Positions 1 through 44,839 of a stretch of DNA of 64,000 bases are shown here, piece by piece. A program made the position numbers and the translations under genes. Every line of letters starts with the position of its first letter. The stretch's first letter is position 1. This stretch comes from a virus (lineage: Duplodnaviria; Caudoviricetes), in IMG/VR virus record IMGVR_UViG_3300023283_000076, positions 96,001 through 160,000 of that record. The stretch is one strand, 5' to 3'. The notes under the pieces are model-generated. The model was not told the DNA's origin. It made no database searches and saw only the letters and a list, made by a program, of their open reading frames with translations.

Positions 1-22
1 TTCACTAATCGGAGAAACTTAC

Positions 23-301
23 ATGTCTGTCGAAATTGTTAACGAACGTTTCATGGTTTGTGTTGATTGCGCTATGTTTATTGCCAACGATGATCTTAGT
101 GGGCTCGATTACCATTTTCTCTCCGATGAATCTGAACAGCGTGAAATCGCTATCCGCAACGGTGTTCAATATCAAAACGATCAAGATAATCATATTGTTA
201 TGGGAAACTCTGATGATGATATTGAATTTTCCAAAAGCCCTTGCAATTGTTGTGGCGATCATTTACATGGATATCGTTATCATGCAGTTTTACTTAAATA
301 A
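23..301 (+). CDS. Early hypothetical protein, Cys-rich (possible Zn-binding)
   Basis: ORF with GGAG RBS; CVDC and PCNCC motifs. Confidence 0.75.
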   Translation: MSVEIVNERFMVCVDCAMFIANDDLSGLDYHFLSDESEQREIAIRNGVQYQNDQDNHIVMGNSDDDIEFSKSPCNCCGDHLHGYRYHAVLLK

Positions 302-318
302 GAAACATTCCTACATAT

Positions 319-456
319 AAATGAAAATCATTTTCATTTGGCAATGAGAATCATTTTCAATATCAAAAATGATAGCCATTCTCATTTGACAATAAAAACC
401 ATTCTCATTTGACAATAAAAACCATTCTCATTTGACAATAAAAACCATTCTCATTT
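319..456. repeat. Six tandem 21-bp Fur-box-like elements at about 23-bp period
   Basis: Boxes at 319, 342, 367, 390, 413, 436; first is a perfect 10-1-10 palindrome AAATGAAAAT-C-ATTTTCATTT; last three are identical CAATAAAAACCATTCTCATTT. Confidence 0.8.
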
Positions 457-648
457 GACCTTATCTCGATTCAACCCTAGATGGTATCATATAACACCTG
501 TAAATACAAAGATTTTTTTTTATCCTATTTTGGTACCTTTATCATATGCTGATACCTTTGTCAATACCCTAAAGAAAATATAATCAAAATCTATCAATCC
601 ATCAGAGTTCATGCACAAATCGGATTTACAATTATTTTCAAAAATCGG

Positions 649-677
649 TTGACGGATTGAGCATGTTGCTGTATGAT
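649..677 (+). promoter_or_regulatory. Sigma70 early promoter
   Basis: TTGACG-N17-TATGAT, followed by leader ACATTCACTGATA and an RBS. Confidence 0.85.
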
Positions 678-710
678 CGGACTCACATTCACTGATAAAG
701 GTAAATTGTT

Positions 711-1019
711 ATGCTAAAGATTGAACAGGAAATGATTAACGCCATTCAAAACAAGCGCAATTGGAGGTTCGGTAATACTTCGGTCGAATACTTGCCCGAG
801 ATTGTTACACCTATGCGGGCACGTATTGAAATGGCAAAAGTTTATCTTTACAGTAACTGTATTGCCACTTATTCTTATCATGATAATACAGCTACTATCG
901 TTCCCAGCACGCTTGTAGAATGGCCTACTGTTACAACCTTTTCTCGCCTTCGTGCTCTTGGACTTGATCCTAAATCGGAACTTAAGAGAATTGCAAATAA
1001 CATACAAGATGCAGCATGA
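711..1019 (+). CDS. Early hypothetical protein
   Basis: ORF behind promoter and AAGG RBS. Confidence 0.75.
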   Translation: MLKIEQEMINAIQNKRNWRFGNTSVEYLPEIVTPMRARIEMAKVYLYSNCIATYSYHDNTATIVPSTLVEWPTVTTFSRLRALGLDPKSELKRIANNIQDAA

Positions 1020-1174
1020 AAAACAATTACCGCAAGTTAACCAAGAAACAATGGTATGACCTTGGCGGCTTCGCCAATCCATCATTGTTTCGTCGTGACC
1101 GTAGCAGGGGCTGGCAATACTATCAAGATATGGACCACCCTGCAAGTAATCATAACTATAGTGAATAAAGAATC

Positions 1175-1197
1175 GGGGCTTCGGCCCCCTTTCTTTT
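1175..1197 (+). terminator. Rho-independent terminator
   Basis: GGGGC-TTCG-GCCCC followed by T-rich tail. Confidence 0.85.
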
Positions 1198-1274
1198 ATC
1201 CTATTCTAGAACCTTTACCATACAATCAAAACAGTGTCAACCGATAAACGAAATAATTTATTTTTAAATAAGTA

Positions 1275-1302
1275 TTGACTCCTCCAAAAATACCAGTATA
1301 AT
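1275..1302 (+). promoter_or_regulatory. Sigma70 early promoter
   Basis: TTGACT-N16-TATAAT. Confidence 0.8.
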
Positions 1303-1333
1303 TGTTTACATCATTTCAACAAGGGAAATAGCT

Positions 1334-1636
1334 ATGGAAAATGTAAAGTTTGCTGGCTTTGATTGTACCGTTGAATTTGCCACGTACTCGAATGGACGTA
1401 CCGCTATTCAGCTTCGTGATGCAAACGATGGCCAGCCAATTGCCACCGCAACAGTCAACCTTCCCGATGAACCGATGGCTGAGGATGAGGTTGCTATCAA
1501 GAACTATAGCGAAAACTCTGGCATGTTAGATATTTTAATAGACACTGGAGTGATTGCCAGCCCGCATCGTGAAATCCCTAGCGGCTTCGTCACCATACCA
1601 GTCTGCGCCCTTCTGGTCAATCCAAATCAATCCTAG
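1334..1636 (+). CDS. Early conserved phage hypothetical protein
   Basis: ORF with own promoter and terminator; NGRTAIQL...ATATVNL...IKNYSEN pattern. Confidence 0.8.
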   Translation: MENVKFAGFDCTVEFATYSNGRTAIQLRDANDGQPIATATVNLPDEPMAEDEVAIKNYSENSGMLDILIDTGVIASPHREIPSGFVTIPVCALLVNPNQS

Positions 1637-1723
1637 TCAGTGAATGGTCTAGGTGGGCACGGGAAACCGTGCCCTTTTTTATCCTATTCTAAAACCTTTA
1701 TCATATCTTCATTCTAATGTCAA
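1629..1723 (+). repeat. 95-bp direct repeat, copy 1 (copy 2 at 2064-2158)
   Basis: 93/95 identical; contains terminator GGGCACGG-GAAA-CCGTGCCC-T6 and the intergenic module. Confidence 0.95.
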
Positions 1724-1746
1724 GAAAAATAATTTAAAATTTATTC

Positions 1747-1774
1747 TTGACACTCTCAAAAATATCTGTATAAT
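1747..1774 (+). promoter_or_regulatory. Sigma70 early promoter
   Basis: TTGACA-N16-TATAAT plus ACATTCACTGATA leader. Confidence 0.85.
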
Positions 1775-1806
1775 AGAATGTACATTCACTGATAGGAATA
1801 ACATAC

Positions 1807-2043
1807 ATGAACACTCTCAAGAACATTTCATTAGATCGAGATACTATTTTAATGGAACACGGATATGATCCGAATGATCCTACCTTGCAGGTGCATGTTA
1901 GTGTATCTGAAATTGAACCTAACCCTGATGGCAATGAAGATTATCTCATCGATGGTTCTAGTGTCACTACATCATCAGAACTTATCGACGGCCGTCAAAA
2001 TGATGTTGATCTGAATATCGAAATTTTCCGAGAACCGCATTAA
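1807..2043 (+). CDS. Early acidic hypothetical protein
   Basis: ORF flanked by the 95-bp direct repeats; AGGA RBS. Confidence 0.75.
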   Translation: MNTLKNISLDRDTILMEHGYDPNDPTLQVHVSVSEIEPNPDGNEDYLIDGSSVTTSSELIDGRQNDVDLNIEIFREPH

Positions 2044-2063
2044 GTATCGGCTCCAATCAGTTT

Positions 2064-2158
2064 AATCCTAGTCAATAAATGGTCTAGGTGGGCACGGGAA
2101 ACCGTGCCCTTTTTTATCCTATTCTAAAACCTTTATCATATCTTCATTCTAATGTCAA
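2064..2158 (+). repeat. 95-bp direct repeat, copy 2
   Basis: Near-identical to 1629-1723. Confidence 0.95.
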
Positions 2159-2202
2159 CCCTTCAACCCAAAAAATTTCTTACAAATAATTATTAAAAAC
2201 CC

Positions 2203-2230
2203 TTGCACTTTCCCGAAAAATCTTTATAAT
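2203..2230 (+). promoter_or_regulatory. Sigma70 early promoter
   Basis: TTGCAC-N16-TATAAT. Confidence 0.75.
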
Positions 2231-2264
2231 AGATTCTAACATCAACTGAAAAAGGATAGTAGGT

Positions 2265-2999
2265 ATGCCAAGTCAAGAAATCGTCGAAATTTTCCGCAAT
2301 CATGGCGTGAACATCACCGCTGATGATTCCAGTATGAAACTGGTCAAAGCGTTGAAAGAAGAAAATCCCGCAACACTATGGCCCATGCTTGAAGAGTTTA
2401 CTAACAACAAGCCTATCGGCCTCGATGGCTGTAACGAAACAATGCATCACTATACATTGCAATATGCCCTCGTAAGAGCATTTGAACAAAATCGTGATAG
2501 CATCACTCAAGACGATTTAGATGCTGCTCGTGAAGATGCTGCCAAATTAGCAGAATCCCTTTCTCATGGTTCGTCTACTCGTGATGATGAAATCGTTCAA
2601 AATGATTCCGAAAATGAAGATAATCAGAGTAACGTTGCTAAGCCTAAGAAAACCAGAAAACGAAATCGTAATCTGTATCCCATGATCCTTTCGTTAGTCG
2701 AAGATAATATGAAAGCAACGCCTAACGAAATTCTCGAAATGGTCAAAGAACGTGATCCCGCTGCAAACGATTCAACCGTCAAGGTATACTACAGCAAGGC
2801 ACGTAATGAACTCAACTTGCCGAAAATCGGAAAACGTGGCCGCAAGGGTTCAGGTATCTATGATAAGATCAAAGCATTGATTGAAGCTAACCCGAACGTT
2901 GAACGTGCTGAAATGATCGAACGCATCGTTAACGAACTTGGAGCCAAAGTCGGTACCGCTCAAGCCTACTACAGCAAGGCAATGAAAGAATTGAGCTAA
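2265..2999 (+). CDS. Early protein with two C-terminal helical (HTH-like) repeats
   Basis: Repeats ending STVKVYYSKARNEL and GTAQAYYSKAMKEL, each preceded by a basic linker. Confidence 0.7.
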   Translation: MPSQEIVEIFRNHGVNITADDSSMKLVKALKEENPATLWPMLEEFTNNKPIGLDGCNETMHHYTLQYALVRAFEQNRDSITQDDLDAAREDAAKLAESLSHGSSTRDDEIVQNDSENEDNQSNVAKPKKTRKRNRNLYPMILSLVEDNMKATPNEILEMVKERDPAANDSTVKVYYSKARNELNLPKIGKRGRKGSGIYDKIKALIEANPNVERAEMIERIVNELGAKVGTAQAYYSKAMKELS

Positions 3000-3021
3000 C
3001 CCCTAGCTTAACATCAAAAAC

Positions 3022-3052
3022 TATTCAGGGACCATAGAACGGTCCCTGAATA
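3022..3052 (+). terminator. Hairpin terminator
   Basis: TATTCAGGGACC-N7-GGTCCCTGAATA. Confidence 0.7.
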
Positions 3053-3184
3053 TTATCCTATCCTAATGCCTTTAACTCATCATCATCATCCATTTGTCAA
3101 TACCCTAAGCAAAATATAATCAAAACATATCAATCTATCCAAATCTATAGACAAATCGGATTTACAATTATTTTCAGAAATCGG

Positions 3185-3213
3185 TTGACGAATTGACCAT
3201 GTTGCTGTATGAT
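3185..3213 (+). promoter_or_regulatory. Sigma70 early promoter
   Basis: TTGACG-N17-TATGAT; surrounding ~140 bp homologous to 559-705. Confidence 0.85.
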
Positions 3214-3245
3214 CGTACTTACATTCACTGATAGGAGAAACACAA

Positions 3246-3515
3246 ATGGAAGATATTCTCAGGGAAGAGCGATTCAACAAAATTATGGAAGCAGGAAACA
3301 ATGGCCATTTCTTTTCTGTTCGCTTCATCAAGCGGTCTAACGGTGCCGAACGCTTCATGACCTGTCGCCTCGGAGTTACAAAACATCTCAAGGGTGGTAA
3401 CAAAGCATACGACGACAAAGTTCACAAACTTGTCACCGTCTACGATGTTCAAGCCAAAGGATACCGTTGCATTCCACTGGAAAGCATCTTTGAACTCAAC
3501 GGCGAACCTATCTGA
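3246..3515 (+). CDS. Early small beta-rich (SH3-like) phage protein
   Basis: FFSVRFIKRSNG...VYDVQAKGYRCI pattern; GGAG RBS. Confidence 0.7.
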   Translation: MEDILREERFNKIMEAGNNGHFFSVRFIKRSNGAERFMTCRLGVTKHLKGGNKAYDDKVHKLVTVYDVQAKGYRCIPLESIFELNGEPI

Positions 3516-3692
3516 TAGGTTCAATCGTATCATCAAGAGGATGCGACTTGTTCGCATCCTTTTTTATCCTATCCTAATGCCTTTAACTCATCATCATTTA
3601 TTTGTCAATACCCTAAAGAAAATATAATCAAAACCTATCAATCAATAAGAATCTATAGACAAATCGGATTTACAATTATTTTCAGATATCAG

Positions 3693-3720
3693 TTGACAAT
3701 CCTGAAAATATCTGTATAAT
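3693..3720 (+). promoter_or_regulatory. Sigma70 early promoter
   Basis: TTGACA-N16-TATAAT plus ACATTCACTGATA leader. Confidence 0.85.
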
Positions 3721-3752
3721 CCTTAATTACATTCACTGATAAGGGTAACACG

Positions 3753-4640
3753 ATGAACGGAAATCAAAAGATTCACAAGATTGTAGCGCAAGCTTTCATC
3801 GACCAGATCGAAGCAGGTATGGCGGATGGTAAATGGACCGCTCCATGGGCGAAGCTTGCCACAGACTTTCCGACCAATGCCGTGACAAAGAAGGCATACC
3901 GTGGTATCAATATCTTTTCATTGTGGGGCGCTGGATTCTCATCCCCGTACTGGGCTACCTTTAAGCAATGGAAGTCAGTCGATGCCACGATCAAGAAAGG
4001 ATCAAAAGGATCATTGATCGTTTTCTGGAAAATTATCGATTCCAAGAATCAATTCGATAGTGACGGCAAGCCAAAAAAGTTTCCCTTCCTACAGAAATCG
4101 AAAGTTTTCAATGCCGATCAAGTTGATGGCTGGACCGCTCCAACACTGGAAGATCGTCCTAAGCTTTCGACAAATGAAATCCATGCCGAATGCGATGCAA
4201 TGATCGCAGCGACGGGTGCTGAAATCCAGCATGGCGGAAATATGGCCTGTTATGTTCCAAGTCATGACCGTATACTTCTTCCTGAATTCAACGCCTTTCG
4301 GGATGCCGATTCATACTATCAGACCGCATTCCATGAACTGGCACATTGGACAGGTCATGCTTCACGACTGGACCGCAACCTTTCCACCCGCTTCGGAAGC
4401 AATGCATATGCATTGGAAGAACTGTTAGCAGAACTTACAGCAGCCATTGTGGGCGTCCGTATGGGCATCGATGCTACTACCCGCATGGACCATGCAAAGT
4501 ATGTAAAGAGTTGGCTTACGGCGCTTCGTGAACAGCCAGAGTGCCTCATGCATATCGCCAGCAAGGCGAGCAAGGTAGCGGATTACCTGATCGAGGGCGA
4601 AGCAGGTGAAACCAAACAAGATCAAGCGGAAGCCGCTTGA
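3753..4640 (+). CDS. ardC: ArdC-family antirestriction / ssDNA-binding protein with zincin-like domain
   Basis: PW...PTNAVT...YRGIN...WATFKQW...VFNADQ N-terminal domain; FHELAHWTGH...RL.R...YALEELLAEL zincin motif. Confidence 0.92.
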   Translation: MNGNQKIHKIVAQAFIDQIEAGMADGKWTAPWAKLATDFPTNAVTKKAYRGINIFSLWGAGFSSPYWATFKQWKSVDATIKKGSKGSLIVFWKIIDSKNQFDSDGKPKKFPFLQKSKVFNADQVDGWTAPTLEDRPKLSTNEIHAECDAMIAATGAEIQHGGNMACYVPSHDRILLPEFNAFRDADSYYQTAFHELAHWTGHASRLDRNLSTRFGSNAYALEELLAELTAAIVGVRMGIDATTRMDHAKYVKSWLTALREQPECLMHIASKASKVADYLIEGEAGETKQDQAEAA

Positions 4641-4660
4641 TCTATCATTGATAGACTAGA

Positions 4661-4692
4661 CGAGGATGCGAATCATTCGCATCCTCTTTTTT
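4661..4692 (+). terminator. Rho-independent terminator
   Basis: GAGGATGCGAA-TCA-TTCGCATCCTC plus T run; related hairpin at about 3538-3565. Confidence 0.85.
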
Positions 4693-5358
4693 ATCCTACT
4701 CTAGAGCCTTTACCATATAACATATCGCTTGTCAATACCCTAATCCAAAAAACTGAAAACAAGTTTGGGAAATTTTGATTACCATATTTTTGAGATCTTG
4801 TCAAGGGGGTACGGGCTGTGCTAAGCAATTGAACAAAAATTAACCACTTTTTTATATAGAAAGTTTTTGAGAATTTTTGATTAGTTCTACAGGGGAATAT
4901 TAGACCCTTTTTTATTTTTTGCTATCATTTTTTATCATTTGCTATTATTTTTCACGATTTATAATAATTTGTGATTGTTTTTCATAAGTTGTGACTGTTT
5001 TTCATGAATATTGATAAACACAATTTGATTGTATAAACACAATACAATACTTTGGCATTGATTCTGCTAAACAGAATACAAGTTTCGGTTTTGTATATAT
5101 GGAAGAGGGGGGTCTTTTATATAAGGGTTTATATTATTGAAAAAATTTTCTCAGAATTTTTTTTATTACTCAGAGATTTTATATTCTGTTAGAGTTTATA
5201 AACTTTAATAAAATATTGTTTTTTAAAAAAGTATGATTTAAAACATCCGATGAATTGAAAGTTAAGTGAAATCTATGATAATGACCACAAGAATCAAGAA
5301 CTGATTCAAATGAACTAAATATTTGAAAGATCATTTCAATAGTCGTTGGAATTAACAT

Positions 5359-5727
5359 TTATTTTTTCCAGACACATTTTTCGTTATACCACTTTGCTAC
5401 TACGGTAGTTACTATAATTTTTGAATTATTTTTTACTTTACAGATAAAGAAACATGGTCCATTATTCACTACAACGAATTTACCGTAGCGTGTAAAGTTT
5501 CTATTCAGCCAGAACGGTGATTGTTCCCATTTGTCACAAATTCTTCCTTCTTTAACTTTTTCTGCAATGATTGAATTCCACATATATTTGGAAGATACTT
5601 TACTACTGTAGAAATATAATCTAAAGCGTTCCAAGAATCTATTATGTGCGTGATGTGTAACACGAATATCTTTTATATTAGCGTTTCGCACACAGTTTTT
5701 AAGAGAGGTGGTGTTTATATGTGTCAT
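5359..5727 (-). CDS. Hypothetical protein
   Basis: ORF; VTHHAHNRFLERF motif. Confidence 0.65.
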   Translation of the reverse strand: MTHINTTSLKNCVRNANIKDIRVTHHAHNRFLERFRLYFYSSKVSSKYMWNSIIAEKVKEGRICDKWEQSPFWLNRNFTRYGKFVVVNNGPCFFICKVKNNSKIIVTTVVAKWYNEKCVWKK

Positions 5728-5881
5728 TGTTATTTTTCGTTATTTTAAAAATTATTAGTTATATAATTTACGATTGGTATTATACCAATTGTTGAAGGGA
5801 TTGTCAAGCTTAAATGTTATTGATTGTAATTTGGTACTTATTGTGATATACTTATTTTAGAAATTTGTTAGGAAAAGATTA

Positions 5882-6274
5882 ATGTATAAGATGGATAACA
5901 ATTTACCTATAATTGGAGATAATTTTTCGGATAATGATTTTGGTAGAATATGTAAAGAATTATATTTATTTTTAGATGAAGAAAGTCGTGCTGTAGCGGA
6001 TGATATCGGAACTGATATTGAAAAATTTAATGTATTTTTGGCACAAATTCATCATTCTTATGGTCGTTTTTTGAGGAATGAATTTCATTTATGGAATTCG
6101 GACAATCCGATTGTATTGTGGAGTAGGGAAAAATACGGAATTGATCATGCTGATGATATTTCCAGTATTATTATTGCTGGGATAATATTTAATAAAGATC
6201 ATGAATTCAGAGATTTGGTAATTGATACATTAGTTAAGCGGTTTCATAAGCATTGGAGGATGTATGGAAACTAA
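5882..6274 (+). CDS. Hypothetical protein
   Basis: ORF behind a promoter-like AT-rich region. Confidence 0.65.
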   Translation: MYKMDNNLPIIGDNFSDNDFGRICKELYLFLDEESRAVADDIGTDIEKFNVFLAQIHHSYGRFLRNEFHLWNSDNPIVLWSREKYGIDHADDISSIIIAGIIFNKDHEFRDLVIDTLVKRFHKHWRMYGN

Positions 6275-6428
6275 AGACTTGAAGACTATAGGCGCTCTTC
6301 AGAAGGCGGTTCAATTAGCTCGTATTGCTAGTGATTGGAATTTTGATGAAGTTGAGATAGACGAAGAGATGGTTAGTATTCATGAACTAATTGAAGAATT
6401 TGAAATGGTTATTAAAGAATTTGATTGA
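6264..6428 (+). CDS. Small acidic hypothetical protein (54 aa, not in ORF track)
   Basis: GGAGG RBS; METKDLKTIGALQKAVQLARIASDWNFDEVEIDEEMVSIHELIEEFEMVIKEFD. Confidence 0.6.
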   Translation: METKDLKTIGALQKAVQLARIASDWNFDEVEIDEEMVSIHELIEEFEMVIKEFD

Positions 6429-6495
6429 AAAGCGGTAGTGAAATCAAAATAGTTATTGGAATAAATAATATTGTCAGAGTGTTCCCGTAAGATAT

Positions 6496-7716
6496 ATGAA
6501 TATATTAAAGATATTAAAAGAGATTGATGGTTTCACTTATAATGAACTATTTAATATTTTAAATGAGAATTACAAGATTGCGTTAGACAAATTTTCATCT
6601 GAAGCAAATACTGATACTATCAAGGATTATTTTTCTAAGTTTAAGGAACTGGGGAAGAAAAATTTGATTAACAAGGACATATCTTATTGGATTCCCAAGG
6701 GTTGGGAAAAATTTAAAGCGGCGGTAGATGATGCAGAAGGATATGGTAAGTCTAGGACTGAGCATAAGCGTAGTAAAAATGCGGGTAAATCTATTACTAT
6801 ACATGAAGATAATAGATGGTTGATTGTTATTCCGTTAGATAAAGATGCAAGTTGTTTTCATGGTCGAAATACTGATTGGTGTACTGCCAAGCCCACTGAA
6901 TTGCATTTTATCAAATATTTTAATGAAAACAATATAATACTAATTTATTTCATAGAAAAATCTTCTAATGAAAAATACGCAATCTCATTTAATGAAGATA
7001 ATAATCAGGTAGAATTGTTTGATAAGAATGACAAGAGCATTAGTAGAGAAGATTTTAAATCAGGCACTGGACGGGATCCTTTAGATATTGTTAATTTGGT
7101 TGAGGATGAGTATTTAGAAAAAATAAAATCTTGGAAACAGAATCAGAAACAAGAGCAAAAAGAAGCTAAAGCGGATATTATTAAATACCGAGATGGTGAT
7201 TATTTTAAAAAGGATGCTCCCAAGAATAAAATTGAACACTATTTGAGAAATTCTCGTGATGTTGATAACTTGTCCGCTTATATACGAACTTTTGGTTCAG
7301 ATAATCCAGAAGAAGACATATTGATGATGGATTCTGGACTATCTACACAAATACTTGGTGATAAGGCACCTGAAAAGGTAAAAAGGGCGGCTATTAATTT
7401 ATCTCCCCTGAATATTATGTATTTGGATAATCCATCTGAAGAGCTTCAATTGATGGGTATAAAAAGTTTATCAGGTATTCGTTCTGTTTTTAGTGATCCC
7501 AAAAAAGAAATTTCTGATAAAGTGGCGTTGGCTGCGATAGATAGATTGCGAGGAGCGTATAATGGAGAATATCTCAAAGATATATTTACTCCTTATCGAA
7601 ATTATTCTGAGGATGTTCAGATTGCAGCAGCGAAGAAATATCCAGAAAAAGCATTAAAGTATATCATAAATCCTACGGATAAAGTTAAAAGGATGCTACA
7701 ACATAAAACACAATAA
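6496..7716 (+). CDS. Probable late/virion-associated protein
   Basis: ATAAATA upstream; N-terminus MNILKILKE; GRNTDWCTA motif. Confidence 0.7.
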   Translation: MNILKILKEIDGFTYNELFNILNENYKIALDKFSSEANTDTIKDYFSKFKELGKKNLINKDISYWIPKGWEKFKAAVDDAEGYGKSRTEHKRSKNAGKSITIHEDNRWLIVIPLDKDASCFHGRNTDWCTAKPTELHFIKYFNENNIILIYFIEKSSNEKYAISFNEDNNQVELFDKNDKSISREDFKSGTGRDPLDIVNLVEDEYLEKIKSWKQNQKQEQKEAKADIIKYRDGDYFKKDAPKNKIEHYLRNSRDVDNLSAYIRTFGSDNPEEDILMMDSGLSTQILGDKAPEKVKRAAINLSPLNIMYLDNPSEELQLMGIKSLSGIRSVFSDPKKEISDKVALAAIDRLRGAYNGEYLKDIFTPYRNYSEDVQIAAAKKYPEKALKYIINPTDKVKRMLQHKTQ

Positions 7717-16391: not shown

Positions 16392-16694
16392 TTAAGTAGA
16401 TATTACAGTAATTCTATTTCCTACAAATCCACTAAATTTTTCTGCTGCTTGTATAGCAGTCCTAACTATATTCTCTCCATTTGAAACATCAATAGATTTA
16501 GTTGACATATGTTCAGATGCAACATGTAATGCACCAAGTGCGAATGACTGGCCACAACCAACACATGCAAAGGGCTCCTCAAATTCCATGACAGAGAAAT
16601 CATGTGATATGGTAAAAATATTATTTTCAAATGCTACAATGAACTCCCCGCCCGAAATTTCAGAAGCATCAGACTTTTTTATATACAAGTGATC
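16392..16694 (-). pseudogene. HslV/Ntn-hydrolase-like peptidase, 3' part (interrupted by IS)
   Basis: DHLYIKK...CVGCGQSFALGAL; in frame with 18009-18332 once the IS is removed. Confidence 0.8.
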
Positions 16695-18008
16695 TTGACA
16701 ACTCCCCTCGCTAAAGCAAGGGGATTCTTGTTTCACAGTCCTGTGCATTGCTCCATACAGGAGATTCAGTCTTATTTTGGACTCCACAAGCTAACTCCGT
16801 GTGCCCCACGGTTAAAATATTTTTAGCTGCATTAATATCTCGGTCATGTTCAACATGACACGATTCACAGCTAAATTTACGGACTGAAAGAGGCATTTTT
16901 GAATGCAAATGTCCACAACTGGAGCATGTTTTGGAACTAGGATACCATCGATTGACTTGATGGAATGTTCTGCCATACCATTCAGATTTATATTTCAGCA
17001 TGTCTACGAATGTTGACCATGCTGCATCTGAAATGGCTTTGCTCAATTTGCGGTTTTGAATCATGTTTTTAACAGCTAAGTCTTCTAATATGATCACTTG
17101 GTTCTCGTTGACAATATTAGAAGACAGTTTATGCAGAAAATCTTTCCTGCAATCAGCTATTTTAGCATGGACTCGTGCCACTTTCAGTTTTTGTTTCTTG
17201 AAGTTTTCACTTCCTTTTTGTTTCTTGCTTAAACGTCTTTGTTCAATTTTTAATTTCTGTGCATATTTTCTGGTGTTTCTCAGATTAGCAATCTTGTTTC
17301 CATTTGAATCAATCAGAAAATGTGTCAACCCAAGATCAATTCCAATCTTGTTTTGATTGACAGGTTTCAATTTCATGTCCTTCTCACCCTGAATAGAGAC
17401 GAAATATCTGTCAGCACTATCTTTTGAAACTGTGATTGAATTAATTTTTGACAAATCTAAGTCTCTTGACCATTTTATTTCTAATGGTTCTTTAGACTTT
17501 GCGATGTATAGCTTTCCGTCTTTAAAACGGAATCCACTATTGGTTAATCGAAATGATTGCTTTTTATGTCTATTTTTAAATTTTGGATATTTGGCTCTTC
17601 CCTTAAAGAAGTTAGAAAATGCAGTATCTAGATTGCGTAGTCCTTGTTGTAATGCCACATTACTTACATCATACAACCAGTCCAGTTCTTTTTTTAGCTC
17701 TGTGAGTTTTGCGCTCGTTTGATTATAATTAATTGAATTGTTATTTTGGTAATACTCATTGTGTCGGTATTCCAAAATATTGTTGTAGACAAATCGCACA
17801 CAGCCAAATGTCCGAGCGAGAAGTGTTTTCTGCTCATTGGTCGGATACACTCTATATTTGTATGCGATTTGTTGATTCAATTAATTGTTGCATATTTTTG
17901 TATTATACATCTATTTAGTAAATTTGACAAGTAGTAAATACTTTTGTCATATTATATTCTTTTAGAGTTTAACCCCTCCCTTAAGGAAGGGGTCTGTTTG
18001 TTTGGTTG
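16695..18008 (-). mobile_element. IS200/IS605-family TnpB-only element (IS1341-like), 1314 bp
   Basis: Inserted after TTGAT; left-end hairpin CCCCTTCC-TTAA-GGGAGGGG; right-end hairpin TCCCCTTGC-TTTA-GCGAGGGGA ending GTCAA; no target duplication; no tnpA. Confidence 0.93.
16711..17880 (-). CDS. tnpB: RNA-guided endonuclease TnpB
   Basis: AYKYRVYPT...FGCVRFVYN; GIDLG (RuvC-I), LEDL (RuvC-II), SSKTCSSCG/CESC Zn finger, DRDINAA (RuvC-III). Confidence 0.97.
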   Translation of the reverse strand: MNQQIAYKYRVYPTNEQKTLLARTFGCVRFVYNNILEYRHNEYYQNNNSINYNQTSAKLTELKKELDWLYDVSNVALQQGLRNLDTAFSNFFKGRAKYPKFKNRHKKQSFRLTNSGFRFKDGKLYIAKSKEPLEIKWSRDLDLSKINSITVSKDSADRYFVSIQGEKDMKLKPVNQNKIGIDLGLTHFLIDSNGNKIANLRNTRKYAQKLKIEQRRLSKKQKGSENFKKQKLKVARVHAKIADCRKDFLHKLSSNIVNENQVIILEDLAVKNMIQNRKLSKAISDAAWSTFVDMLKYKSEWYGRTFHQVNRWYPSSKTCSSCGHLHSKMPLSVRKFSCESCHVEHDRDINAAKNILTVGHTELACGVQNKTESPVWSNAQDCETRIPLL

Positions 18009-18332
18009 ATCAAATAAATCATATAAAGCTGGAACAAATGATTTCACCATATATTCCATATTATTGGTTATTACCTCAGGATCTAATCTAGGGACATTAA
18101 AATGATATTCTAGAATCTGTCCCATTCTAAATGATGTGGTATATCCAATTAATAAGGGCCTAGGATTAGCGTCAGGGTTTTTAATTGAAGTCTTATTTTT
18201 TAATTCTTTGGTAAAAATCTTTGAATGCGCGTATGATCTTTTTGCATAACTCTCTGAATCAGAATACGCAGCGATATCGTCTCCACCCATATAAATTCTA
18301 TCAATATCTTTATATGCTACTATACAAGTCAT
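18009..18332 (-). pseudogene. HslV/Ntn-hydrolase-like peptidase, 5' part
   Basis: Starts MTCIVAY (Thr2 nucleophile position); IGYTTSFRMGQILEY. Confidence 0.8.
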
Positions 18333-36799: not shown

Positions 36800-37024
36800 T
36801 TAACATTTGTTACAGGTATAATCGATATCAGCTTTATTATCGCAAAAGTCACACAGTGTAATGTTATTGTTATTAGCTCTGTTGAGTCTATCTGCGGCTT
36901 TATATAGACTTTTAGTCGTTACCGCTGTAAAAGGAAATGGGGTGCGTCCCCATACTATATGGTTAACTACTTCATCTGAAGGAGTTTTTTTCATTGCTTT
37001 TCCTACTATTTCTTTAGCGTTCAT
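36800..37024 (-). CDS. Small Cys-containing hypothetical protein
   Basis: WGRTPFPF; CDFC...CNKC; GAGG RBS. Confidence 0.7.
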   Translation of the reverse strand: MNAKEIVGKAMKKTPSDEVVNHIVWGRTPFPFTAVTTKSLYKAADRLNRANNNNITLCDFCDNKADIDYTCNKC

Positions 37025-37187
37025 AATTTAAATACCTCTTTAATAAGTCTCCTGAAATCGTGTTACAAATGCAAGAGATTAATCTTGCTAACTCCACTGG
37101 TCGAAAGTGCTAAAACCCCAGTTTCATTGTCATTACATACCCTCGATTTCCCTGACGCACTTCATCTTCGGTTGGAGACTTGGGAAA

Positions 37188-37547
37188 TTAAATATCTATT
37201 CTTCGCAATAACTCAAGTAAACTATTATTTATAGAATATATCTCATTTTGGATATATCTAAGTTTTAGAGAAACATTAGAGTCATTATGTGTTTCATCAT
37301 TTTTTTGATCTTGTTTCTTTTGTTCTTTATTTATGTCAGGAATCAGTATATCATTCAGACTATTATATAATTCATCTCTAATATCAGCTAGGTGTTCCAC
37401 TTGTTCTGTCAGATGTGTGATATTCACTGTGATAGAACACGCATCTTTATCTTCTGGAGTGTCTCCATAGGATATGGTTCCCTCAAACGCTTCGGCTTGT
37501 GTTGGTTTTTGTCTATAGGTTTTTTTTGTTAAATCATTTTCATTCAT
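37188..37547 (-). CDS. Hypothetical coiled-coil protein
   Basis: ORF with AGGA RBS. Confidence 0.65.
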   Translation of the reverse strand: MNENDLTKKTYRQKPTQAEAFEGTISYGDTPEDKDACSITVNITHLTEQVEHLADIRDELYNSLNDILIPDINKEQKKQDQKNDETHNDSNVSLKLRYIQNEIYSINNSLLELLRRIDI

Positions 37548-37680
37548 ATTAAAATATCCTTAATTTATTTTTCTTGCGAATGTTCTTTCTTTTATGACCT
37601 GCACTAATTAATCTCGATATCGTTCAGAAAGCATATATGTAAAAATTTAGATAGGGTGCATATTAAAACTTTCTTACATT

Positions 37681-37905
37681 TTACTTTAAGCTTCTAGCTA
37701 GAAGCTCACCGTTTTCTTGGTCGCTAAATTTATCCCATCCTGAACCTGTTCTAATTTCCATAGATTCAACTAAATCTATAGATTGAACATGGTTAGCTAA
37801 CTCTTCTCTATAATGCTGCTCAGTTTCATCTTCAAAGGGTTCACGGAATTCATGGACCCTTGCTGCAGATTTTAGTGCCTTCATATTTGGAAAATTCATT
37901 GGCAT
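37681..37905 (-). CDS. Hypothetical protein
   Basis: Own TTGACA-N17-TATTAT promoter and AGGAG RBS. Confidence 0.7.
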   Translation of the reverse strand: MPMNFPNMKALKSAARVHEFREPFEDETEQHYREELANHVQSIDLVESMEIRTGSGWDKFSDQENGELLARSLK

Positions 37906-37971
37906 TTTTATTTCTCCTTTTATTAGCGTGTAAGGGTATAATATAGTAATCGTGGAGAGATGTCAAGGGGG

Positions 37972-38047
37972 TGGTGGCGATAGTAGGACTTAAACCTACG
38001 ACCTCTTCCGTATGAAGGAATTGCTCTGTCAACTGAGCTATATCGCC
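37972..38047 (-). tRNA. tRNA with CAT anticodon (elongator Met, or Ile2)
   Basis: Loop TT-CAT-AC; G1:C72; CCA. Confidence 0.88.
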
Positions 38048-38058
38048 ATTTTAAAAGT

Positions 38059-38134
38059 TGGTGCGCAACCCAAGCCTCGAACTTGGAACCTTTCGATTAT
38101 CGGTCGAATGCTCTGCCAATTGAGCTAGTTGCGC
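38059..38134 (-). tRNA. tRNA-Ile(GAT), atypical C33
   Basis: Loop CC-GAT-AA; CCA. Confidence 0.9.
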
Positions 38135-38159
38135 AGGTTTCGTGTATTTGTTTATTTAT

Positions 38160-38323
38160 CAGACAAAGAGAAGACCTCTTCTTTAACGCAGCTAAAAATA
38201 TATTAACCTTCGGGCAGACGGAGCTAGCTTGTGGAGTCCAAAATAAGACTGAATCTCCTGTATGGGGCAATGCACACGACTGTGAAACAAGAATCCCCTT
38301 GCTTTAGCGAGGGGAGTTGTCAA
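38160..38323 (+). mobile_element. 164-bp internally deleted derivative of the TnpB element, retaining the omegaRNA/right-end region
   Basis: TTTAT|left-end-like CAGACAAAGAGAAGACCTCTTCTTTAA fused to ~136 nt near-identical to the tnpB 3' end and right end, ending GTCAA. Confidence 0.88.
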
Positions 38324-38534
38324 TGCTACTAACAGGCGGGAATATATGCCATACTACACTCCGGGGGCAGCTTCTTTAAAAGCTTTTTCAAAGTTTTTTG
38401 ATAGGGATTCTATAAGTTCTTCTTTTTCTTCTAAAAACTTTTTGTATTTTTCTTTCAGTTGATTATCCATAGTCCAGATTTCTTATTAAGTTGCAACATG
38501 ATACAGTAAAATAAGTATATTGTCAAGGGGGAAT

Positions 38535-38610
38535 TGGAGCGGCTAAGGGGAATCGAGCCCCTGACCTCAACTTTGGCAAAGTTGCGCTCTACCTACTGAG
38601 CTATAGCCGC
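38535..38610 (-). tRNA. tRNA-Gly(GCC)
   Basis: Loop TT-GCC-AA; C54; CCA. Confidence 0.92.
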
Positions 38611-38615
38611 ATATA

Positions 38616-38813
38616 TTAAACATATATCTTATCGTTCTTTTCTTCTTCTTTTAAAATATCATAAACAGAAAGCGGAGATCCTGAATTTTTTAGATTTTGC
38701 TCCATTACGCCAATAAAATCCGTTATATGATCATCCGGTATAGAATGGACAAATTTTCTAACTCTGTTCTCTGCTTCCATACGCTTTTTAGTGCTCGTAT
38801 CTGCTATATGCAT
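38616..38813 (-). CDS. Hypothetical protein
   Basis: ORF. Confidence 0.5.
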   Translation of the reverse strand: MHIADTSTKKRMEAENRVRKFVHSIPDDHITDFIGVMEQNLKNSGSPLSVYDILKEEEKNDKIYV

Positions 38814-39169: not shown

Positions 39170-39271
39170 TATTTTAATTTAATATGTTGTTTATTCATTT
39201 AATTCACCTGTTGTTTATTTTCATATTCGAAAAATACGGTCCGCTGAATTTCTGGCCCTTCCGTAAATAAT

Positions 39272-39384
39272 TGTGCGCTCTAACTGCTTTAACCGCTCGC
39301 CACACCCACGAGCTTCTGGTCTTGGCCACACCACTAGCCTCAAGGATTCAGGTTTAGCGCACACTACTACAATCCTTTGTTCGA
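39272..39384 (-). ncRNA. Candidate pseudoknotted ncRNA, copy 1
   Basis: Homologous to 44587-44698 with compensatory changes in three helices. Confidence 0.75.
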
Positions 39385-39427
39385 TAAACTGCAATGGTTA
39401 CTATATCATCTTGTAACAACATTTGCA

Positions 39428-44478: not shown

Positions 44479-44586
44479 ATATACCCATACACCTTTTTTA
44501 AAATTATAGCGTATCTACTATACGAGGTTAAAGATATTTATGTCAAGGAAAACATGATATCCTTTTATTATTTGTAACAAAAACAT

Positions 44587-44698
44587 ATGCGTCCTAACTG
44601 CTTTAACCGCTCTCCACACCAAAGAGCTTCGGGTCTTGGCCACACCACTAGCCTCAAGGGTTCAGGTTTGACGCATCCTACTACAACCCTTTGTTCGA
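44587..44698 (-). ncRNA. Candidate pseudoknotted ncRNA, copy 2
   Basis: See copy 1. Confidence 0.75.
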
Positions 44699-44839
44699 AA
44701 AATCTTTTTTATTTATAATAACATCTTTAAAGGTGAAATGCGAACAATATATTATTATATGTCTGATTTATTGGAGATTTATATTTTCAATTTTTAATTT
44801 TTATAAATATATACGAAATACTTACACGGAGTAATAGTT

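Follow-up and report, generated by a model that had tools for sequence, protein, structure and literature searches.

Gene-less minimal elements of the IS200/IS605 type are known from two settings: the PATE-like elements of G. stearothermophilus (Meers et al., PMC10055086) and the stand-alone omegaRNAs of OMEGA systems, which are mobilised and work in trans with a compatible effector (PMC10691335). IS605 derivatives that carry omegaRNA scaffolds but no genes have thus already been described (PMC10055086, PMC10691335), and the mini-element considered here is built alike. As in PATEs, a left end, an omegaRNA scaffold and a right end follow one another with no ORF, and both TnpA and TnpB would be needed in trans. 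However, PATEs keep both end hairpins and are mobilisable, whereas the left-end hairpin of the mini-element is halved, the element is present in one copy only, and its insertion site belongs to a class unlike that of the co-resident TnpB. With the stand-alone omegaRNAs of OMEGA systems (PMC10691335), it shares an effector-less scaffold, a flank of its own and an effector encoded in the same genome; in comparison, it is a presumably immobile locus of doubtful TAM compatibility. The scaffold follows the plan of the ISDra2 TnpB-omegaRNA and of solo-tnpB elements of the IS1341 type (stems 1-4, a pseudoknot with the 3' end, ~116 nt; PMC10097598), a likeness that extends to the TCAA right end and to the TTGAT site used by the resident element, while the mini-element descends from a TTAT-type sibling. 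ISDra2 requires a scaffold of 116 nt, and residue K76 of its TnpB reads the -3 base, a G (PMC10097598). In IS608, the choice of cleavage site is made by a four-base guide that lies 5' of either hairpin (PMC3201880); this rule predicts both sites here, the difference being that the mini-element lacks an intact left hairpin, the one bound by TnpA.

The window, i.e., the whole 64,000-nt stretch of DNA that was analysed, corresponds to positions 96,001-160,000 of a linear virus record of 270,653 nt that is 79% complete. The record contains a T4-type gp23 capsid gene and 48 tRNA calls, and the T4-type late box ATAAATA is enriched upstream of its ORFs (51 in sense vs 8 in antisense orientation); the phage is also present in the samples SRR23862446 and JGI 3300022725. 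This T4-like phage contig hosts both a tnpB element and the mini-element, whose features in the window are as follows.

16695-18008, minus strand: solo-tnpB element resident in the phage (1314 nt), interrupting an HslV-like gene behind TTGAT (18013-18009)
37972-38134, minus strand: tRNA-Met and tRNA-Ile; the mini-element lies 25 nt upstream of tRNA-Ile and antisense to it
38159-38153, minus strand: T4-late-type ATAAATA box, the tRNAs' own late-type box
38155-38159, plus strand: TTTAT, left cleavage site/TAM of the mini-element's parent, in host DNA outside the element and predicted by AAGA
38160-38186, plus strand: left-end stub of a TTAT-type IS605/IS1341 element, laid out as the left ends of L017, L013, L016 and the resident
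38183-38186, plus strand: TTAA junction, a microhomology that the loop of the left-end hairpin shares with the 3' region of tnpB at 141 nt from the right end
38207-38323, plus strand: omegaRNA scaffold, 117 nt, with an ISDra2-like structure covarying in 10 relatives and a layout assigned by analogy (PMC10097598)
38209, plus strand: private G>T breaking a stem-1 pair (G in 9/9 relatives)
38277, plus strand: private G>C by which stem 3a loses its inner pair (8/8 aligned relatives have G)
38324-38343, plus strand: right flank, which could serve as a guide; ordinary phage DNA of the intergenic space that separates tRNA-Ile from a 38-codon ORF
38498-38526, minus strand: strong promoter of the sigma70 type (11/12), from which transcription would cross the mini-element on the antisense strand

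The resident element displays an intact left-end hairpin with the guide CAGA and the site TGAT. Its tnpB (17880-16711, minus strand) encodes all three RuvC acids (D182, E266 and D348) together with the signature Y70/N74, and differs from ISDra2 in having Asn-Val at the position taken to be that of K76-F77. The HslV-like peptidase gene split by this element (window 16392-18332) regains a single open frame upon its removal in silico. The tnpB promoter (TTGTCA-17-TATAAT, 17930-17902, minus strand) is a strong one of the sigma70 type, and a late-type (C/A)TAAATA box is nested inside it, as in several relatives, which suggests an adaptation of the element to phage transcription. No tnpA was found in the contig.

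The mini-element spans 164 nt (38160-38323, plus strand) and consists of a left-end stub of 27 nt, which meets an IS605/IS1341 3' end at TTAA. The longest inverted repeat of the window pairs this 3' end with that of the resident (16695-16835 vs 38183-38323; 141 nt, 94% identity, blastn E 3e-58), with eight substitutions over the 141 nt, seven of them within the final 136 nt. At the right end, the guide GAAT, the subterminal hairpin and the cleavage site TCAA of an IS200/IS605 element of the IS1341 type are all present, the hairpin and GTCAA being identical to those of the resident. The stub is made of an 11-nt linker, the guide tetramer AAGA (38171-38174) and the 5' arm and loop of the left-end hairpin; the 3' arm of that hairpin, the promoter and the tnpB ORF are deleted, so that a broken tnpB tail is left and no protein-coding gene. 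The halved left hairpin has a DNA fold of -2.6 kcal/mol (z -0.5), against -6.7 for the resident, and as only its 5' arm and loop remain, TnpA should be unable to move the mini-element. A short hairpin in the stub was considered as a replacement left end and rejected, being weak and burying the guide tetramer. The mini-element is single-copy in the contig, and neither the contig nor the collections searched yielded a further copy that would speak for mobility; by covariance model, the genome holds two omega scaffolds, the resident's and this one. The right flank begins at 38324 with TGCTACTAAC... The original prediction had described a 164-bp element fused at TTAA, with about seven substitutions over ~136 nt and an intact hairpin and GTCAA, preceded by TTTAT rather than TTGAT and followed by a new flank; its coordinates are confirmed on all these points. 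The segment which it called left-end-like is a real left end, reduced to the hairpin 5' arm and loop, and is not a copy of the resident left end.

The parentage of the mini-element can be read from this left end. The left-end rule relies on an exact pairing order between the guide tetramer and the cleavage site, and with it the tetramer upstream of the left hairpin correctly predicted the site in 17 of the 18 left ends examined. In the mini-element, AAGA located 5' of the hairpin arm predicts TTAT, and TTAT is present 11 nt upstream. Because the guide predicts this site independently, the boundary at 38160 is exact; because it predicts the element's own TTTAT site, the parent was a TTAT-type sibling and not the resident TTGAT element. 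Judged by its guide, the TTTAT before the mini-element is the native site of a different parent and not a product of drift, and the candidate explanation of a resident copy with a mutated TAM was rejected on the same match between left-end guide and TTAT. The left end of the S-type relative L017 is similar to the stub, and the 5' part of the scaffold shows three differences from the S-type L020 vs six from the resident. Five of the eight scaffold differences between mini-element and resident are variants seen in full-length relatives, among them a compensatory change from G-C to C-G in stem 1. Gene conversion with the resident was also considered (6/46 vs 2/95 differences, Fisher p 0.015 with a breakpoint chosen post hoc); it is possible and unneeded, since the whole family is mosaic.

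The mini-element is probably what a deletion left of an IS605/IS1341 tnpB element, a stranded remnant devoid of genes. As read from the DNA, a TTAT-specific sibling entered the region upstream of the tRNA-Ile/Met pair, taking TTTAT as its site, with a transposase that must have acted in trans, since none was found in the contig. About 1.15 kb would then have been lost between the TTAA of the left-end hairpin loop, the parent's loop sequence being taken from that of the resident, and the TTAA near the 3' end of tnpB, and with this deletion the ORF and the promoter would have gone, along with one half of the hairpin. Deprived of the left-end hairpin, the remnant could not be excised and, deprived of the promoter, it would produce little or no omegaRNA; it would thus stay in place and drift, and the two stem-breaking substitutions would have arisen during this drift. 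If the resident is taken to represent the parent, all of its TTAA sites precede stem 1, and any TTAA-mediated deletion would thus keep the scaffold without selection. As a relic, the mini-element is of little importance.

Whether the resident TnpB could use the flank of this remnant as a second guide depends on its TAM specificity. Among 17 related elements, the TnpB residue that we take to align with ISDra2 K76 tracks the -3 base of the insertion site, as counted over fetched loci whose sequences are non-independent:

Asn, -3 G, 5/5: resident, L036, L037, L040, L041
Ser/Ala, -3 T, 5/5: L021, L025, L027, L028, L032
Cys/Phe, -3 C, 5/5: L013, L022, L024, L030, L031
Tyr, -3 A, 1/1: L016
Phe, one case not assigned to the residue/base pattern: L014

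The close TnpB relatives are 76-87% identical, and more distant ones also differ at the K76-equivalent residue. The residue, the left-end guide and the insertion site change together (N with TGA-, S/A with TTAT, C/F with TCAT and Y with TAAT). Of more use than the relic itself, this series of closely related TnpBs from phages (76-87% identity; TGAT, TTAT, TCAT and TAAT) provides a natural TAM code open to testing, which a limited literature search did not find stated. Engineering data agree in part with the pattern: K76S, K76A and K76C are listed as opening TTTAT, and K76N is absent from the variants listed (PMC13639567).

The original prediction was that of one TnpB with two guides, directed against relatives that lack either insert. 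In such a model, an expressed mini-element would load the resident TnpB and its second guide would direct the cutting of co-infecting relatives without the insert, resulting in RNA-guided homing or interference. If it worked in this manner, phages would have in this locus a minimal multi-guide weapon against one another. A full-length scaffold that is 94% identical to the resident's, with an identical right end, and the presence of all three RuvC acids in the resident TnpB are in line with this model, and stand-alone omegaRNAs have been reported to be used in trans (PMC10691335). Against it, TTTAT followed by the mini-element's flank is the exact site that the model requires, and its -3 T does not fit the resident, whose Asn-type TnpB falls in the -3 G class, which is indirect evidence of incompatibility. 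Any RNA loaded on the resident TnpB would serve an enzyme predicted to require -3 G; the resident enzyme therefore probably ignores the TTTAT empty site and leaves it uncut. In a second reading, the mini-element would be a hitch-hiking guide of no use to the resident: a Ser/Ala TnpB of the TTAT type, brought in by the host or by a co-infecting sibling, would load it and drive its homing. The site of the mini-element fits the S/A-type TAM; such TnpBs, with 76-87% identity and near-identical scaffolds, exist in related phages. However, none is encoded in the contig, a transcript would still be required and the mini-element bears marks of decay; this second reading has a low probability.

These marks of decay lie in the scaffold, whose parts are otherwise all in place: stem 1 with its pseudoknot loop (38207-38221), stems 2 and 3, the right-end hairpin (38295-38314) and the GTCAA end. 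The original prediction had raised the worry that a 5' truncation removes essential scaffold, which proved inapplicable: stem 1 starts 24 nt inside the stretch shared with the resident and 117 nt from the right end, so that 117 nt are kept where ISDra2 needs 116. Loss of the scaffold by truncation was accordingly rejected. Over 10 relatives, 95.7% of the cells of the ISDra2-like structure are paired, with eight compensatory pairs, as compared with 40-48% in slid controls; Rfam contains no model for the scaffold. While the mini-element's scaffold is still 94% identical to the resident's, variable stem 3b included, and complete in length and pseudoknot, it has a broken pair in each of stems 1 and 3a. 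Of the 139 cells that make up stems 1, 2 and 3a in 10 scaffolds, just two are unpaired, and both belong to the mini-element. Predicted stem-1 pairing is 0.0 in the mini-element vs 0.7-1.0 in the other nine, and is regained once 38209 is set to G in silico. The stem-breaking substitutions are a hint of drift and no proof of loss, two substitutions being of low statistical power and the other scaffolds being also under coding constraint; they count against a second guide, although a single mismatch may be tolerated or rescued by protein binding.

Transcription of the mini-element raises a similar doubt. Its own promoter is deleted, no plus-strand sigma70 match above 8/12 was found within 400 nt, as compared with 11/12 for the resident promoter, and no plus-strand late box was found in 37000-38700. 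A single plus-strand sigma70 match of 9/12, located 600 nt away, is at chance level. The caveat attached to the original prediction, i.e., an orientation antisense to the tRNAs and no clear plus-strand promoter, is thus borne out, and it weighs against the two-guide model; a plus-strand omegaRNA may still arise by read-through or from a non-consensus promoter. The position of the mini-element between the strong minus-strand promoter (38526) and tRNA-Ile, and the GC-rich hairpin that it adds there (45% GC vs 33%), could also speak for retention through an influence in cis on the minus-strand transcript, by attenuating or processing the precursor of tRNA-Ile/Met, or through a role as a TnpB-titrating decoy. 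However, neither strand yielded a terminator-like site at this locus, the tRNAs have their own late-type box, and there is no sign of conservation; such a role is very unlikely.

Evidence of targets or of relatives with the empty site was also sought. Exact 16-nt guide matches occur in three contigs, all of them ending at 16 nt and devoid of a TAM. TT(G/T)AT followed by a 12-nt seed occurs in nine contigs; as these matches lie in unrelated DNA and do not extend into the guide, they were treated as chance. The search of phage and contig collections for the guide beside the TAM, which had been proposed along with the original prediction, thus gave no TAM-adjacent match beyond chance, and no self-target with up to four mismatches was found for either guide. 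No relative with the mini-element's empty site was found, which counts against the two-guide model; isolate phages match the region only at the tRNAs, and a search via the neighbouring ORF retrieved no related tRNA region. The absence of targets and empty sites is weak evidence, because close relatives are scarce in collections: the viral contig collection and the GTDB genomes contained no close relative of the tnpB or the scaffold. A gene-less, full-length scaffold with a new flank, of a kind for which trans use is published (PMC10691335, PMC10055086), is hence what stands of the original prediction, while its inference of two guides for one TnpB is improbable given a TTTAT site set against an Asn signature (-3 G, 5/5), two breaks in core stems and no targets. 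For an orphan scaffold beside a tnpB, the left-end guide, the insertion site and the TAM residue should be checked before it is called a second guide. At another locus, a syntenic phage carries an S-type tnpB (L015:9870-11186) where the site is empty in the present record (208944-208949); this empty site reads TCAT and not TTAT, and its flank shows mismatches with the guide, which is what escape or drift would be expected to produce.

Comparable loci exist in relatives. A second gene-less mini-element (L018:2330-2616), cut by the contig end, has a left hairpin, a promoter-like region and an intact stem 1. The same contig carries a tnpB without a visible left hairpin and with Tyr at the third RuvC acid (L018:353-1535). 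Judged on these parts, the L018 mini-element is a better candidate for a stand-alone guide, located beside a nuclease-dead TnpB; with its intact stem 1 and promoter-like region, it indicates that scaffold retention recurs, which counts against the remnant reading of the present mini-element. That lytic T4-like phages keep stripped omegaRNA loci as extra TnpB guides for homing or interference between phages, the present one being served by a TAM-relaxed resident or by a TTAT-type TnpB borrowed from a co-infecting sibling, is unlikely. A right-end-only remnant of ~65 nt from which most of the scaffold is gone (L007:2469-2535, minus strand) shows that right-end debris of this kind occurs; the sample that contains it also holds a full element (L014).

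The record itself has an unusual architecture. An inverted duplication of 68-93% identity relates its positions 1-46 kb to 52-102 kb and extends into window positions 1-6700, with a tandem repeat near its centre and a doubled tRNA cluster; the first 102 kb probably arose through the joint assembly of two related strains of phage. By extension, the tnpB element and the mini-element could stem from different phage genotypes and share no system, the duplication resembling two joined strains. However, both elements lie beyond the duplicated region (112.7 and 134.2 kb), and an independent Logan contig (L006) confirms the mini-element's right end and flank at 100%; a mixed origin of the two elements is extremely unlikely. 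A possible structured RNA is present on the minus strand of the window as two intergenic copies that are 86-89% identical (39265-39388 and 44579-44702), with a compensatory outer stem, weak fold z-scores (-1.5 and 0.7) and no Rfam match. Finally, window positions 297-459 and 515-4743 contain 23-nt tandem repeats in which the motif ATCATTTTCATT is abundant, as well as a promoter-like repeat family of 58 to 146 nt located upstream of small genes.
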